DNA from: an uncultured Nitrospiraceae bacterium
GTDB lineage: Bacteria > Nitrospirota > Thermodesulfovibrionia > Thermodesulfovibrionales > Dissulfurispiraceae
Reading direction: 5' to 3'
NCBI GenBank assembly: GCA_947085205.1
Contig: CAMTVO010000014.1
Coordinates: forward strand, 17,946 to 81,945
DNA length: 64,000 bases
In this document: positions 10,973 through 23,622 of the stretch, one piece after another
Layout: each line of letters begins with the position of its first letter
How positions within the stretch are numbered: the stretch's first letter is position 1
Program-made: the position numbers and the translations under genes
The notes under the pieces: model-generated
The model's input: the letters and a program-made list of their open reading frames with translations, nothing else
Told to the model about the DNA's origin: nothing
Database searches by the model: none

Positions 10973-10990
10973 ATTTTACCCCCTTTAGTT

Positions 10991-11049
10991 CAGTAAGCAT
11001 TAAACAGTGAGCAGTTTTCGGCTGACTGCTTACTGCTTACTGCTTACTG
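10991..11049. repeat. Inverted pair of arrays (CAGTAAG/CAGTGAG vs CTGCTTA), spacer between the hypothetical gene and valS
   Basis: Arms at 10991-11014 and 11022-11049. The right arm covers the valS C-terminus and stop. Confidence 0.9.
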
Positions 11050-13873
11050 TCTTTAATAGTTTTATGTTCTCCTCTATCTTTTCTTTTTTGTGGACAAAGT
11101 CATCAAACTTTGCCTTCTCCTTTTCGACCACAACCCTTGGAGCATTCTTCAAAAAATCTTCATTTAGAAGCTTCTTGTTTAACGTTGCTATTGAATCATC
11201 TATTTTCGACTTCTCTTTCTGAAGCCTCTCCACTTCAGATTTTATATCCAGCAGACCCTCTATTGGAATGTATATCTCCATCTTATCCCTTACGGATACC
11301 GCCGAGCCTTTTTCTTTCCTAATATCAGCCCCGATATTTATCTCTTTGCAACGTGTCAATTTCATTATAGCAGTAAGATTGTTTTTCATAACATCTTCCA
11401 CTTCCTTTGAAGCGGTTTTTATACCTGCCCTCATTTCAAGAGATGGGGCGATATTCAACTCTCCCCTTATGCTCCTTATGCCGGTTATCGCACTTATTAT
11501 ATAGTCCATCTGTTCCTCAGCATCGGGATATTTAGGTAAATCTACCGGATATTGTGATATCATAATACTTTTGCTCTGCTCAAATACGGTATTCCACAAT
11601 TCTTCTGTAACATACGGCATAAATGGATGTAACAACTGAATGATCTTCTCAAGAACAAAGAACAAACAATTTATAACCGCCGCCTTTTCTTCGCTGCTTC
11701 CGTGATAAAGAACAGGCTTTGTAAACTCTATATACCAGTCGCAGAATTCATGCCACACAAACTGGTATATGCTGTTGGCCGCATCGTTGAACCTGTAGTT
11801 TCCAAGATTTCTGTTGACCTCTTCTGCTGTAAAAGCCAGTCTGCTCAGTATCCATCTGCCCGGAAGGTCTAAGTCCTTGTCATGCCCGTGCAGCGGCTGC
11901 TTTGCCCATAATTCTTCGTTATTCACTATGAATTTTGCGGCATTCCATAATTTATTTATGAAATGTCTGTACCCTTCGACCCTATCTTCGGAAAATCTCA
12001 CATCCCTTCCCTGAGCAGCAAATGCAGCAAGGGTAAACCTGAAGGCATCGGCGCCGTATTTATCTATCATTACGAGAGGGTCTATCACATTGCCTTTTGA
12101 CTTGGACATCTTATGTCCCTTTGAGTCACGAACAAGGGCATGGATATACACATCCCTGAAAGGAGCATCTTTCATTACCTTCAGTCCCATCATAATCATT
12201 CTTGCGACCCAGAAGAATAAAATATCAAAGCCTGTGACAAGAACACCCGTCGGATAAAATGTCTTTAAATCCTCTGTCTCTTGCGGCCATCCGAGAGTAG
12301 AAAACGGCCATAATGCAGATGAAAACCATGTATCAAGAACATCAGGGTCCCGGATGATATTTTTGCTGCCGCACTTAGGGCATTCCGTTAGCTCTTCCCT
12401 CTGACAAATCGGTTTTACTTTCTTTGATATCCTTATAATCTTTGAATTCCTGATTATTTCCTCATGGCTCATTCCCAGCTTTTTCAATTCTGAATATATA
12501 CCGCCGGTAGCCTTGATTCCCGCACGGAGCATTACAGGCTCAAAAAATATATGCTCTATTATTTCGCCTTGAGGAGGTGTACCGTCTTCTCCTTTGCAGT
12601 CAGGACAGCACCAGACAGGTATCTGGTGTCCCCACCATATCTGGCGTGATATGCACCAGTCCTTTATGTCTCTCATCCATGCAAAATAGTTGTTTTCCCA
12701 TGAATCAGGAATGAGCCTTATTGTTTTGTCCTGCACTGCCCTTACAGCCTCAGATGCAAGAGACTCTATTTTGACATACCACTGAATTGTAAGCAGAGGC
12801 TCTATTATGGTCTTGCATCTGTAGCAATGTCCCACAGAATGGAGGTATTTCTTATCGCCTTCAAGCAAATCAAGTTCTCTTAAATCCTCAACTATCTTTT
12901 TCCTGCAAATGTATCTGTCAAGGCCGCTGTATCTTTCTCCTGCTTCTGCAGACATGCGTCCGTCTTCAGAAATTACGCTGATTGATTTAAGCTTATGGCG
13001 TTTGCCGATTGCTTCGTCATTAAAATCGTGTGCAGGTGTAACCTTTACAGCGCCTGTTCCAAAAGCAGGATCAACAGCAGCATCTGCAATTACAGGAATT
13101 TTTCTGCCTGTCAAAGGCAAATCGAGGTTTTTACCGATAATATCTTTATATCTCTCGTCTTCAGGATGGACGGCAACCGCCGTATCACCGAGCATAGTCT
13201 CCGGTCTTGTGGTTGCAACAGTTATATACCCCCCCTCTATCCGAACAGGGGGGGTAAGAGGATATTTTATGCTGTAAAGTTTGCCTTCGATTTCTTCATA
13301 TTCCACTTCAAGGTCGGAAAGCGCAGTATGGCATCTCGGACACCAGTTAATTAGACGGTTATCCCTGTATACAAGCCCTTCCTCAAAAAGCCTTACAAAC
13401 ACTTCCCTTACGGCAGCGGATAATCCTTCATCAAGGGTGAACCGTTCTCTCGACCAGTCGCATGAAGCGCCTATTTTTTTTAGCTGGTGTATTATCTTTC
13501 CGCCGTATTCGGCCTTCCATTTCCAGACCCTTTCAATGAACGTCTCTCTTCCAAGTTTATGCCTGTCGATTCCTTCCTTTGAAAGCTCCCTCTCCACCAC
13601 ATTCTGTGTTGCTATTCCTGCATGGTCGGTTCCAGGGAGCCACAAGACTTTATGTCCAGACATCCTCTTCCATCGTGTAAGAATGTCCTGAATTGTGGCA
13701 TTGAGTGCATGACCCATGTGGAGGGAACCAGTAACATTGGGCGGCGGTATGACTATGCAGAACGGTGCTTTTGTGGCATTAGGATTCGGCTTAAAATATC
13801 CATTCTGCTCCCAAAAAACATACCACTTGTCTTCTATGTCTTCCGGACTGTAAGTTTTCTTTAGTTCAATCAT
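11030..13873 (-). CDS. valS: Valyl-tRNA synthetase
   Basis: Class I signatures PPPNVTGSLHMGH and KMSKSKGN, TTRPETM, C-terminal coiled coil. 947 aa, with an enlarged CxxC...CxxC insertion. Confidence 0.97.
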   Translation of the reverse strand: MIELKKTYSPEDIEDKWYVFWEQNGYFKPNPNATKAPFCIVIPPPNVTGSLHMGHALNATIQDILTRWKRMSGHKVLWLPGTDHAGIATQNVVERELSKEGIDRHKLGRETFIERVWKWKAEYGGKIIHQLKKIGASCDWSRERFTLDEGLSAAVREVFVRLFEEGLVYRDNRLINWCPRCHTALSDLEVEYEEIEGKLYSIKYPLTPPVRIEGGYITVATTRPETMLGDTAVAVHPEDERYKDIIGKNLDLPLTGRKIPVIADAAVDPAFGTGAVKVTPAHDFNDEAIGKRHKLKSISVISEDGRMSAEAGERYSGLDRYICRKKIVEDLRELDLLEGDKKYLHSVGHCYRCKTIIEPLLTIQWYVKIESLASEAVRAVQDKTIRLIPDSWENNYFAWMRDIKDWCISRQIWWGHQIPVWCCPDCKGEDGTPPQGEIIEHIFFEPVMLRAGIKATGGIYSELKKLGMSHEEIIRNSKIIRISKKVKPICQREELTECPKCGSKNIIRDPDVLDTWFSSALWPFSTLGWPQETEDLKTFYPTGVLVTGFDILFFWVARMIMMGLKVMKDAPFRDVYIHALVRDSKGHKMSKSKGNVIDPLVMIDKYGADAFRFTLAAFAAQGRDVRFSEDRVEGYRHFINKLWNAAKFIVNNEELWAKQPLHGHDKDLDLPGRWILSRLAFTAEEVNRNLGNYRFNDAANSIYQFVWHEFCDWYIEFTKPVLYHGSSEEKAAVINCLFFVLEKIIQLLHPFMPYVTEELWNTVFEQSKSIMISQYPVDLPKYPDAEEQMDYIISAITGIRSIRGELNIAPSLEMRAGIKTASKEVEDVMKNNLTAIMKLTRCKEINIGADIRKEKGSAVSVRDKMEIYIPIEGLLDIKSEVERLQKEKSKIDDSIATLNKKLLNEDFLKNAPRVVVEKEKAKFDDFVHKKEKIEENIKLLKTVSSKQ
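13227..13256. repeat. C7...G7 palindromic element inside valS
   Basis: TACCCCCCC-tctatccgaaca-GGGGGGGTA. Encodes LTPPVRIEGGY. Confidence 0.8.
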
Positions 13874-21787: not shown

Positions 21788-21826
21788 GCTCATGGCTCAT
21801 AGTTTTATAGTTTTTTGCTATGAGCC
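21788..21826. repeat. Inverted GCTCATG/GCTCATA vs GCTATGAGCC arms, mlaE|pyrD spacer
   Basis: Arms at 21788-21802 and 21817-21826. The right arm covers the pyrD stop. Confidence 0.8.
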
Positions 21827-22756
21827 AATTTTCAGGCTTCCGATGATTTCATTAATATCAGAAAGCCCTTCCTCTTTAAGAAATCTCTCAAGACCTTCTA
21901 TTATTTCAATTGTTGCAGTAGGATTTACAAAATTAGCGGTTCCGACAGCAACAGCTTTTGCTCCTGCTATCAAGAATTCGAGGGCATCATTGGCGTCCAT
22001 TATTCCGCCCATTCCGATAATCGGTATCTTTACAGCCTTATAGACTTCCCACACCATCCTAACTGCAACAGGCCTGATTGCAGGTCCTGAAAGCCCACCG
22101 GTGACATTTGCAAGCGCCGGCTTGCGTTTTTTAATATCAACTACCATTCCGGTTATTGTGTTTATCAAAGAAACCGCATCAGCGCCTGAATTTTCTGCAA
22201 CTTTTGCCATAAATCCAACATTGGTAACATTAGGAGAGAGTTTTACTATCAGGGGGAGTTTTATTGCCTTCCTGACAGCAGTTACGGCCTGTTCCATTAT
22301 TTTTGGGTCTGTGCCGAATACTATCCATCCTGCCTGCTTGTTCGGGCAAGAGATATTCATTTCAAGGGCATGGACTCCTTCAGCGCTGCTTAATTCCTCT
22401 GCTGCCTGAACATATTCATCTATGCTGTCTCCAAAGAAATTTGCAATGACAGGAGTCTTGAACTTTTTCAGAAATGGGAGTTTCTCCTCTACGAAAGCCT
22501 TAACTCCTATATTCTGAAGACCAATGGCATTGAGCATTCCTGCTGGCGTTTCGATAACCCTCGGTGTTGGATTTCCTTGTCTTGGCGCAACAGAAAGCCC
22601 CTTGACCACGATTGCGCCAAGCCTGCTTAAATCAAGAAATTCAGAATATTCCTCGCCATATCCGAATGTCCCTGATGCAGTCATCACAGGATTTTTGAGC
22701 CTTAATCCAGCGATGTCTATCTCAAGATTTATTTTCTTTTCTTTACTTAAATCCAT
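21818..22756 (-). CDS. pyrD: Dihydroorotate dehydrogenase, class 1B catalytic subunit
   Basis: NPVMTASGTFG, NISCPN, GGLSGPAIRP, IIGMGGI motifs. Start shares a TAATG overlap with the pyrK stop. Confidence 0.9.
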   Translation of the reverse strand: MDLSKEKKINLEIDIAGLRLKNPVMTASGTFGYGEEYSEFLDLSRLGAIVVKGLSVAPRQGNPTPRVIETPAGMLNAIGLQNIGVKAFVEEKLPFLKKFKTPVIANFFGDSIDEYVQAAEELSSAEGVHALEMNISCPNKQAGWIVFGTDPKIMEQAVTAVRKAIKLPLIVKLSPNVTNVGFMAKVAENSGADAVSLINTITGMVVDIKKRKPALANVTGGLSGPAIRPVAVRMVWEVYKAVKIPIIGMGGIMDANDALEFLIAGAKAVAVGTANFVNPTATIEIIEGLERFLKEEGLSDINEIIGSLKIGS

Positions 22757-23622
22757 TACTCCAACACTCCATCACTCCATACAATGTCTTCTATATCAAA
22801 GACCGGCCCCTCTTTACATACCCTTTTATAAGTAAACAGCGAATGGTGAGCGGTGAGCAGTTGAGATTCGTTTTTATTACTGCTTCCTGCTTCCTGCTCA
22901 CTGCTTACCGTCTTCACCACACATCCCAGACATGCACCGACTCCGCATGCCATGTGTTCCTCCAGAGAAACATAACACTTTATATCTTTGTCTGCGACAA
23001 CTTTGGAAAGTTCTTTCAGCATTGGTGTAGGGCCGCAAGCATAAATCGGTAATGCGTAATGCGTAATGCGTGATGGGTTAAGAAAATCGCTTAAAGAATC
23101 TGTTATCAAACCCTTCTTGCCTTCAGAGCCGTCATCCGTTGCTATAAACAATTCCTTTGAAAATGTTTTTGCCTCATTTAGCATTACCAGTTCTTGTTTA
23201 TTCCTTGCGCCATAAAAAAGATATGCCTTGCTTTTAAATTTCTCCAGAAGATGCAATAAAGAGGCAATACCAATTCCGCCGGCAACCGCTATGAAATCCC
23301 CATGAGGTTCCGGATAGCTGTTACCGAGCGGCCCGATTACATTGATTACATCGCCGCCTTTAAGATTAGATAAACATGATGTGCCTTTCCCCCTAATCCT
23401 GTAAAGAAACCGGAGCGTGTTATCTTCATATCCGAAAATACTAAATGGTCTTTTTAAGAGAGGGTCGTAAGTGTCGCCTGCCTGAAGCATATAAAATTGT
23501 CCCGGCTCCGGAATCTTTACAGTAGACAACGGACTAAGGCTTAATAATTTGAAGCGCTTGTTTAAAGAGATATTGTCGGTTACATCTGCTTTGAAATATT
23601 TATTAGACAAAGCTGATCTCAA
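22756..23622 (-). CDS. pyrK: Dihydroorotate dehydrogenase electron-transfer subunit (FAD/2Fe-2S)
   Basis: RPFSI FAD motif, GGIGIA NAD-type motif, C-terminal CGVGACLGC...C cluster motif. TTG start. Two repeat-derived in-frame inserts. Confidence 0.85.
22845..22909. repeat. Inverted pair of arrays (GGTGAGC x2 vs CTGCTTC/CTGCTCA units) inside the pyrK CDS
   Basis: Arms at 22845-22860 and 22880-22909, with a 19-nt loop. Confidence 0.85.
23049..23080. repeat. Heptamer array GTAATGC x3 (+GTGATGG) inside the pyrK CDS
   Basis: Read directly. Encodes [10 protein letters not shown] on the minus strand. Confidence 0.85.

Follow-up and report, generated by a model that had tools for sequence, protein, structure and literature searches.

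The pyrK gene in the window (the whole 64,000-nt stretch of DNA that was analysed, from an uncultured Nitrospirota bacterium) carried a heptamer-armed hairpin element (22831..22908, minus strand) between the codons for Cys3 and Cys4, the last two of the four cysteines that bind its 2Fe-2S cluster. The element, delimited by DNA alignment with the empty site of a relative, by orthologue alignment and by parsing of its heptamers, was 78 nt long (boundaries ambiguous by a few nucleotides) and replaced approximately 9 nt, a net gain of 69 nt or 23 amino acids, in frame. It is probably a selfish or neutral repeat lodged in a working pyrK: a passenger element which is tolerated and translated.

The pyrK-pyrD locus

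Based on the ORF list, Pfam, a PDB match and the fold of its model, pyrK (22756..23622, minus strand) encoded the electron-transfer subunit of a class 1B dihydroorotate dehydrogenase, 288 amino acids long when counted from the TTG at 23622 (ORF list) and 284 in the public gene call of a near-identical contig, which starts from the TTG at 23610. Two Pfam domains were detected: DHODB_Fe-S_bind (PF10418, 57.7 bits, cut-off 23.9), whose match was broken into two stretches by the insert, and the FNR-type NAD_binding_1 (PF00175, 31.7 bits). Lactococcus PyrK was matched in the PDB (1ep1_B, E=1e-24), and FAD and 2Fe-2S binding, together with electron transfer to NAD+, are the predicted functions. The start of pyrD (21818..22756, minus strand; ORF list and PF01180 search), the gene for the class 1B catalytic subunit, overlapped the pyrK stop (translational coupling), and pyrD was the sole dihydroorotate dehydrogenase gene of the genome (one full PF01180 match in a whole-genome search), a MAG of 1.9 Mb which is around 90% complete.

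The ligand pattern C-X4-C-X2-C-Xn-C was present, with C222, C227, C230 and C265 (284-aa numbering) invariant in a 72-sequence alignment; the window's PyrK retained all 37 family-invariant columns, these four cysteines included. Invariant columns and codon offsets placed the third (C230) and fourth (C265) cysteine codons at 22921..22923 and 22816..22818, both on the minus strand. On the best reading of these sequence features, PyrK with its insert still works alongside the adjacent PyrD.

The hairpin element

Three parts were distinguished, all on the minus strand. Arm 1 (22881..22908; codon-phase analysis, unit census and family copies elsewhere) consisted of the units GTAAGCA, GTGAGCA, GGAAGCA and GGAAGCA, and thus had the genomic (GTAAGCA)n family in the orientation which bears stops. 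It was followed by a 22-nt hairpin loop, GTAATAAAAACGAATCTCAACT (22859..22880), and by arm 2 (22831..22858; inverted repeat, fold and sibling-element alignment), composed of two GCTCACC units, which complement arm 1 and are free of stops in every frame, and then the degenerate units ATTCGCT and GTTTACT. When the insert was compared with the genome by BLAST, only the arm recurred elsewhere, and the loop was unique. An earlier reading made from the sequence alone (hereafter the sequence-only reading) had described an inverted array pair at 22845-22909, in frame in pyrK, after the CGVGACLGC motif and ahead of the final cysteine of the cluster. The inverted arms were indeed found at 22845-22860 and 22894-22909 (16 nt, 88% complementary, 33 nt apart), the minus-strand ORF read as described, and the ORF and the alignment both supported the position between the cysteines. 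TRF reported CTGCTTC x3.9 at 22880-22906. The predicted fold was more stable than that of shuffled sequence on both the sense (-26.8 kcal/mol, z -2.9) and the antisense strand (-31.6 kcal/mol, z -3.8), the stem being better paired on the antisense strand and the mRNA version carrying two A.C mismatches.

PyrK homologues and the empty site

The distance from the third to the fourth cysteine was 35 positions, with the 34 residues between them (C-X34-C) that the sequence-only reading had counted, whereas it was 12 positions (C-X11-C) in 64 of 119 close homologues (VKTVSGYKRVC) and in Thermotoga NfnA (4ylf_A), and 15 (C-X14-C) in Lactococcus PyrK (1ep1_B), in agreement with the figure of about 15 which that reading gave for characterised PyrK proteins. 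Otherwise, Lactococcus lactis PyrK (1ep1/1ep3) and NfnA (4ylf) share with the window's protein the three-domain fold and the C-X4-C-X2-C...C ligands, and the TVSG turn of NfnA also occurs in the short family form of PyrK. The closest insert-free homologue, in the relative L022, had an uninterrupted empty site, exactly 69 nt shorter in the DNA alignment, which fixed the net size of the insert. Words resembling ACNGT were present at both junctions, a match too weak for a target-site duplication to be called.

The possibility that the segment is a conserved, non-repeat part of related PyrK proteins was not borne out: 64 of 119 homologues had the short form, and unrelated extra sequences, of 4-25 residues, were located at the same loop in 53 of 112 homologues; many were plain heptamer arrays, unable to form a hairpin, and at least 16 gains or losses were counted across the PyrK tree. 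The Fe-S loop is the chief insertion hot spot of PyrK within the Dissulfurispiraceae.

The window's own insert was known from one species only, and its nearest relatives were without it. The same insert was present in a second MAG contig (L021; 7 SNPs between both over 3230 nt), in Logan contigs of the runs X1 and X5 and, in part, in run X4, which belongs to another study (Logan contigs break within the repeats); owing to this recurrence, it is no assembly artefact. A search of RNA runs found none that contains this organism; the one metatranscriptome with similar words, X7, contained the pyrK of a relative, with a short loop.

Structure models

The AF2 model of the window's PyrK adopted the three-domain PyrK fold (pLDDT 84.5), with 5ksw_B (E 3e-21, TM 0.77/0.83) and 1ep1_B as the best PDB matches; models were computed without the cluster and without PyrD. 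An SG turn linked strands 230-233 and 236-239 when the insert was left out of the model; with the insert, strands 231-235 and 259-263 lay on either side of it, residues 243-254 had pLDDT values below 50, and the remainder was confident and fitted PyrK structures. Predicting the structure both ways, as the sequence-only reading had suggested, thus located the insertion, in the models, at the tip (the two-residue turn) of the beta-hairpin joining the third and fourth ligands, in an otherwise confident fold. The inserted residues, modelled as disordered, probably form a surface loop, which would be solvent-exposed in the PyrK-PyrD complex.

Other arrays in pyrK

A second array (23049..23076, minus strand; TRF, relatives' arrays and genome family sites) consisted of the unit CCATCAC followed by three GCATTAC units (GTAATGC x3.9 at 23049-23075 by TRF) and encoded PSRITHYAL(P), in a loop ahead of the IYACGP strand. 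The sequence-only reading had reported it at 23049-23080; the repeat and its position just before IYACGP stood, but not the ten residues it was said to add, since the segment had 21 residues in the window against 16 in relatives without an array there (around five added). It did not fold into a hairpin. Homologous heptamer arrays occupied the same site in several genera, with the units TCGTTAC, TCATCAC and GCATCAC, and the (NCATYAC)n family to which it belongs had 45 genome sites with recurring non-repeat flanks, TTTTCTTTTAAC and GGTCTTTTAT. As far as the sequences indicate, this array is older than the hairpin insert and common to several genera.

A third array, absent from the sequence-only reading, was an octamer array of the TGGAGTGA type (22752..22780, minus strand; TRF, alignment and L022/L006 comparison), detected by TRF as TCCATCAC x3.6 at 22752-22780. 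It added SDGVLE to the PyrK C-terminus, most relatives stopping at ...IVWE in the alignment, and both the stop codon of pyrK and the ATG of pyrD lay inside it, within GGAGTAATGG. The relatives L022 and L006 had the same octamer array type. Both the GCATTAC and the C-terminal octamer array are best read as earlier insertions belonging to the same broad class.

Heptamer and octamer arrays in the genome

TRF (score of at least 40) detected 265 period-7 and 70 period-8 arrays in the genome, against 0 and 2 respectively in the locally shuffled genome. Of these 335 strong arrays, 172 were inside crude ORFs, some of them within Pfam domains (CobQ, MurD, FabF and CobA-HemD). For the arrays in ORFs, none of the three frames of the sense strand contained a stop in 119 of 172 cases, against 34 of 172 for the antisense strand and approximately 25-30% in spacers. 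The heptamer design explains how such repeats can reside in genes: since seven is coprime to three, an array in the open orientation meets no stop whichever frame it is read in, and the one remaining requirement is a length which is a multiple of three. Unit sequences varied between loci (for example GTAAGCA, GCATTAC, AGTCAGC and AGAAGTC), and the GTAAGCA arm unit recurred at a minimum of seven other loci. Both pyrK segments belonged to repeat families of the genome, with family copies elsewhere, and sat in frame, as had been proposed. The pyrK case was one instance of a genome-wide phenomenon, not a peculiarity of pyrK. The literature searched contained no account of heptamer arrays, or of repeats inserted in frame, for the Dissulfurispiraceae or the Nitrospirota.

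A sibling element was located 12 kb away in the window (10985-11050), sharing with the pyrK insert the flank AAGAC, GTAAGCA units and the loop end AACT-GCTCAC. The idea of a mobile element conserved over its full length was rejected, the loop being unique in the genome. Two genes of the PF05635 four-helix-bundle family, known from rRNA intervening sequences, were flanked by inverted 7/8-mer arrays: C65:981-1298 had arrays of the GGAGGTT type on its upstream side and CTCCAAC x5 on the other, and C23:26276-26581 had GCAAAGAG-type and CTCTGCGC-type arrays. As for the pyrK insert being a gene-less version of such a cassette, its arm units differed from theirs (GTAAGCA/GCTCACC against CTCCAAC and CTCTGCGC). 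A phase-variable contingency locus was also discarded: no array indels were observed over 3230 nt in two strains (7 SNPs), a small sample; arrays were degenerate, and contigs from four runs, again a small sample, were identical.

Origin of the insert

The insert would have been copied or derived from the heptamer-armed hairpin repeat of this same genome and have become lodged in pyrK at the beta-hairpin turn. Its source was probably a different repeat locus, with short homology priming the copying; the argument from microhomology draws on 5-6 nt and a single sibling element. Cut-and-paste transposition with target duplication seems less likely.

For this origin step only, polymerase slippage on a chance heptamer of the ancestral pyrK is a rather unlikely rival. 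Heptameric repeats are over-represented in many bacteria, with slippage proposed as the cause (PMC4692102), the ancestral target CTGTTTCAG was similar to a family unit, and the second-site arrays of relatives were internally homogenised (GCATTAC, TCGTTAC, TCATCAC), which resembles local concerted evolution. However, slippage yields neither an inverted second arm nor a 22-nt loop, and it does not account for a GTAAGCA unit that was identical at the other loci, for a sibling sharing AAGAC and AACT-GCTCAC, or for CATYAC arrays with recurring non-repeat flanks; nor were there copy-number differences between strains.

Beyond templated copying as such, it is conceivable, but quite doubtful, that a dedicated homology-primed copying process, shared with the PF05635 cassettes, writes heptamer-armed hairpins and targets unit-like sequences such as CTGTTTCAG at the tip of the PyrK hairpin. 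If so, the repeated strikes on the Fe-S loop and other PyrK loops in the Dissulfurispiraceae would reflect target choice plus tolerance, and the stems could be RNase III substrates modulating pyrK-pyrD expression.

Probable translation and tolerance of the insert

The third unit of arm 1 has its first base at codon position 3, and a canonical unit there would be read as CAG TAA GCA. The unit at this place was GGAAGCA, and either GTAAGCA or GTGAGCA there would create an in-frame TAA or TGA stop. G at unit position 2 was found in none of the 26 units of seven other GTAAGCA arrays (unit census). The T>G change at the single stop-prone heptamer appears to have kept the frame open and is evidence, at the level of the sequence, of translation.

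The sequence-only reading had left a choice between a tolerated loop and a removal at the RNA or protein level. A tolerated, translated loop was favoured by four results: the T>G change at exactly the stop-prone heptamer, the unrelated and often non-hairpin extras at the same spot in homologues, the insertion at a beta-hairpin tip, and the absence of any intron, intein or Rfam family match. Pfam detected no intein domain in PyrK, and Rfam gave at the insert only weak matches to the microRNA precursors mir-483 and MIR156, antisense and far below the gathering scores. The insert would accordingly not be removed; it would be present in the transcript and give rise to a surface loop of 23 residues, probably disordered, while the four ligands and the remaining fold stay put and PyrK functions with PyrD. 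Selection would only have filtered and tidied the insert (a length multiple of three, T>G at one heptamer), and elements of this kind would persist as selfish or neutral DNA wherever a protein loop absorbs them.

With -27 kcal/mol on the mRNA, the pyrK stem might have an RNA-level effect, and the insert may have been co-opted, either as an RNA hairpin around 90 nt upstream of the pyrD start which sets cistron ratio or stability (RNase III, ribosome pausing), or as a protein loop tuning access to the 2Fe-2S cluster or its potential. Co-option is consistent with a hairpin whose stability significantly exceeds that of shuffled sequence on either strand, with an insert fixed and identical across samples of two studies, and with PF05635 genes flanked by similar inverted arrays, a hint at RNA processing of stems. 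It is nevertheless distinctly unlikely: the nearest relatives of the one species with the insert do without it, other lineages have unrelated sequences of very different lengths at the same spot, many of them non-hairpin, the better-paired stem is the antisense one, the inserted residues are disordered in the model, and no terminator-like or Rfam signal was detected at the insert.

That pyrK is decaying or non-functional, with pyrimidine salvage or PyrD alone in its place, is very improbable. An alternative system could be missed in a MAG of this completeness, but the ORF is full-length, every family-invariant residue and the four cysteines are kept, translational coupling to the only pyrD persists, the insert has lost its potential in-frame stop, and the model is confident outside the insert; a pseudogene, raised by the sequence-only reading, was disfavoured on these grounds. 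Removal of the insert as a mini-intron, by programmed translational bypass or by protein splicing, which a stable hairpin within the ORF brings to mind (the coding gap of phage T4 gene 60 forms a hairpin), is hardly credible, as the frame runs open through the segment and seems to have been kept so by mutation, needlessly if the segment were skipped, there was no take-off stop and no matched take-off and landing codons, the approximately 23-24 residues are far below intein size, no intron family matched in Rfam, and relatives have similar-sized non-hairpin inserts at the same site.

Comparison with known repeat systems

The tolerated passenger in pyrK is, on the best reading of the analogy, comparable to the Rickettsia palindromic elements (RPE), yet of an undescribed heptamer-armed type. 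RPEs stand among the MITE-type repeats which create in-frame fusions (Ogata et al. 2000/2002, in PMC10969869); they measure around 100-150 bp, both their consensus and the peptide they encode being conserved, and R. conorii has 44 RPE insertions in metabolic genes (PMC10969869). Both systems are dispersed hairpin-forming repeats, many of them in frame in unrelated housekeeping genes and translated at fold-compatible positions, though translation was here read from the sequence; in PyrK the position was the beta-hairpin turn of the models, in the loop that varied in 53 of 112 homologues. In contrast to RPEs, there was no full-length consensus, the heptamer arm alone recurring beside a unique loop; arms were made of tandem 7-nt units which differed by locus; and the elements were far denser (about 170 arrays in the ORFs of a 1.9-Mb genome) and from a different phylum.

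Heptanucleotide repeats (STRR) of Calothrix and Nostoc are abundant and mainly intergenic, with an unexplained origin (PMC4692102). The arrays described here resembled them in being abundant tandem arrays of 3-8 copies of 7 nt, with several unit families per genome, but around half were in coding sequence, often as inverted, hairpin-forming pairs. To our knowledge, the units GTAAGCA, GCATTAC, AGTCAGC and AGAAGTC are not among the cyanobacterial STRR units. The REP/REPIN-RAYT system also has scattered inverted doublets which form hairpins, and one Y1_Tnp gene was present here; unlike REPs, which are extragenic by definition, these arms were tandem heptamers and not a fixed palindrome of 20-40 nt. 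A RAYT link was rejected: the single Y1 transposase (PF01797, C5:2779-3105) had no 7/8-mer arrays in its 2.1-kb locus.

After RPEs, the arrays of this genome may represent a second, denser and structurally different case of selfish repeats in essential genes. The Cys3-Cys4 segment of 2Fe-2S clusters of the PyrK/NfnA type apparently takes 4-25 arbitrary, repeat-derived residues, which marks it out as a naturally permissive place to graft loops or attach tags. The elements also matter for annotation, as they lengthen proteins, divide domain matches (PF10418 was in two pieces) and create 7-residue periodic peptides recurring in unrelated proteins: a 10-residue repeat peptide was common to PyrK and a protein which we take to be HypF.

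Insertion in the Cys3-Cys4 loop of PyrK

The pyrK ORF (22756-23622, minus strand, 288 codons) matched PF10418, the DHOD B Fe-S-binding domain, in two stretches (57.7 bits) and also contained an FNR-type NAD-binding domain (Pfam); the closest solved structures were Lactococcus PyrK (1ep1_B, E 1e-24) and NfnA-type homologues. Its stop overlapped the start of a class 1B pyrD (21818-22756), the sole full DHODH match in the genome (1.89 Mb, ~90% complete), and all 37 family-invariant residues of the homologue alignment were retained. Taxon names carried by close homologues assigned the organism to Dissulfurispiraceae (Thermodesulfovibrionales, Nitrospirota). Over window positions 22600-23300, the pyrK of a related groundwater organism, whose loop is a short version of 21 nt, was present in contigs of sequencing runs X6 (DNA) and X7 (metatranscriptome); pyrK genes of this family are thus transcribed in situ, there in an organism other than that of the window.

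The repeats described in the sequence-only reading (inverted arms, 22845-22860 and 22894-22909; a CTGCTTC array, 22880-22906; and a GTAATGC array) were all recovered. The arms belonged to an element of 78 nt (insert 1: 22831-22908, minus strand) in place of ~9 nt, with the coding strand GTAAGCA GTGAGCA GGAAGCA GGAAGCA, GTAATAAAAACGAATCTCAACT, and GCTCACC GCTCACC ATTCGCT GTTTACT. The mRNA fold (-26.8 kcal/mol) had two A.C mismatches, which turned into G.U pairs on the opposite strand (-31.6 kcal/mol). The distance between cluster cysteines 3 and 4 was 35 in the window PyrK and 12 in most orthologues (20 genera). L. lactis PyrK had a value of 15, and Thermotoga NfnA, which shares a TVSG turn with the short-form orthologues, one of 12. 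An empty site was found in L022, a metagenome contig from a relative (protein P0002), which was exactly 69 nt shorter and nearly identical to the window directly upstream. The orthologue alignment and this contig upheld the earlier claim that insert 1 is a genuine insertion between Cys3 and Cys4.

Probable read-through and structure

Two fates had been proposed for the insert: a tolerated loop, or handling at the RNA or protein level. Of the latter the sequence gave no sign: no intein domain was found in PyrK (Pfam), and no Rfam family or terminator-like site at insert 1. Tolerance was borne out by the 37 invariant residues, by the reading frame and by the structural models. Arm 1 was in the stop-bearing orientation of the GTAAGCA family; its unit 3 started at codon position 3, where canonical GTAAGCA or GTGAGCA gives CAG TAA (or TGA) GCA. 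The unit observed was GGAAGCA, and a G at that position occurred in 0 of 26 units from seven other arrays with at least 3 units. As for the models, AlphaFold folded the window PyrK confidently (pLDDT 84.5, best PDB matches PyrK chains), with strands 231-235 and 259-263 on either side of the insert and pLDDT below 50 for residues 243-254; in insert-free P0002, strands 230-233 and 236-239 were linked by a two-residue SG turn. Insert 1 was therefore placed at a beta-hairpin tip, a classic permissive position. It is thus probably read through, not removed: a putatively translated, tolerated repeat insertion at a hairpin tip between two Fe-S ligands.

Fixation and origin of insert 1

A second MAG contig (L021) carried an identical insert 1; across 3230 nt it showed 7 SNPs relative to the window and no indels in any array. 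Logan contigs of runs X1 and X5 spanned the insert with zero differences, an X4 contig from another study covered half of it, also with zero differences, and the loop occurred in no further protein among 5.8 billion clusters searched; insert 1 is therefore species-specific and fixed there.

In BLAST searches of the genome only the GTAAGCA arm recurred. Seven further loci had 3-4 perfect copies of the unit, as a rule with a loop and then another array behind them. An intergenic sibling (~10985-11050, minus strand; AAGACA (GTAAGCA)x3 GTCAGCCGAAAACT GCTCACT GTTTAAT GCTTACT) matched insert 1 in its left-hand flank (AAGAC), its arm and the end of its loop (AACT-GCTCAC), and AAGAC is native coding sequence in pyrK (VKT). 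These features are suggestive of homology-primed copying, as opposed to transposition with target duplication; the duplication could not be demonstrated at insert 1. The sibling lay directly upstream of a Shine-Dalgarno sequence and ATG.

The single-copy Y1_Tnp gene (RayT/IS200-like, 172 aa, C5:2779-3105, L023) had no 7/8-mer arrays in its 2.1-kb surroundings. Both full PF05635 genes (23S rRNA intervening-sequence, four-helix-bundle; C65:981-1298 and C23:26276-26581, loci L024 and L025) were flanked by inverted 7/8-mer arrays, GGAGGTT-type and CTCCAAC x5 for one, GCAAAGAG-type and CTCTGCGC-type for the other, with units different from those of the pyrK inserts. Such loci may represent hairpin repeats that carry a gene.

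Cluster-loop plasticity and genome-wide repeats

The short loop form was found in 64 of 119 close homologues, the remainder having Cys3-Cys4 distances of 16 to 37. At least 4 extra residues exactly at this loop were present in 53 of 112 homologues, far more commonly than at any of seven other variable PyrK sites, and the short/long state changed at least 16 times on a tree built with the loop columns left out. Many extras were plain heptamer arrays at the DNA level (AGAAGAC/AGAACAC x4 in locus L003, AGAAGTN x7 in L005, AGAAGCC AGAAGAC in L011). The loop is a family-wide insertion hot spot. Unrelated repeat peptides, such as PPFPPLLKGGEGG and VIPAKAGIQ...LDSRLHGNDG, stood in the PyrK of other relatives. 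Among other Dissulfurispiraceae, further repeat classes were translated in the PyrK homologues P0022, P0031, P0042, P0034 and P0061: PPFPPLLKGGEGG, NPSSLLPLNKGRMGG and a 43-aa insert containing VIPAKAGIQ...LDSRLHGNDG. All three are presumably what GC-rich palindromic repeats typically give on translation.

At a TRF score of at least 40, the genome had 265 arrays of period 7 and 70 of period 8; after local shuffling the numbers were 0 and 2. On a crude ORF map, 172 of the 335 lay in ORF interiors and 60 in the first 45 codons; Pfam placed arrays within domains of CobQ, MurD, FabF and CobA-HemD. For the 172 arrays inside ORFs, the sense strand lacked stops in every one of the three frames in 119 and the antisense strand in 34, compared with ~25-30% for either strand in spacer arrays; this excess is the mark of selection acting as a filter. 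Arrays near pyrK were frequent in the closest genera, and none occurred at the locus in more distant ones. Heptamer-armed repeats have colonised coding sequence throughout the genome, and insert 1 is one striking example; its interest lies in this repeat system and in cluster-loop plasticity, above any special function of its own.

Insert 1 behaves like the Rickettsia palindromic elements, which form hairpins and are translated within housekeeping genes at fold-compatible sites (PMC10969869), but lacks their defining conserved consensus. Its tandem heptamer make-up resembles STRR and the general heptameric-repeat excess of bacteria, described as mainly intergenic and attributed to proposed slippage (PMC4692102). 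No literature on such repeats in Nitrospirota was found.

Insert 2 and the pyrK-pyrD junction

The GTAATGC array (insert 2: 23049-23075, coding strand CCATCAC GCATTAC x3) encoded PSRITHYAL and formed no hairpin on folding. It does precede the IYACGP strand, as first read, but adds ~5 residues, not 10, the segment being ~5 residues shorter and array-free in more distant genera. Relatives carried arrays of different, internally homogenised units at this site (TCGTTAC x3 in L002, TCATCAC in L006, GCATCAC/GCATTAC in L003 and L004, AATTTCA in L008); insert 2 is therefore old and shared. The (NCATYAC)n family had 45 genome sites, many of them bordered by the recurrent sequences TTTTCTTTTAAC and GGTCTTTTAT. 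An 860-aa protein (C43:27926-30508), which we take to be HypF, contained at least 7 in-frame arrays, one of which encoded a peptide nearly the same as insert 2 and included the 3' flank GGTCTTTTAT, read as RSFI.

An octamer array missing from the first reading (22752-22780, coding strand TGGAGTGA TGGAGTGT TGGAGTAA TGGA) spanned the pyrK stop and pyrD start, appending SDGVLE to the PyrK C-terminus and providing GGAG motifs and the ATG of pyrD; arrays of the same type were found at this junction in L022 and L006. Over ~22950-23125, a pyrK stretch of ~170 nt that contains the GCATTAC array, the window and L022 differed at only 2 positions, with many more differences in both flanks; this pattern resembles that of a tract recently exchanged between lineages by recombination.
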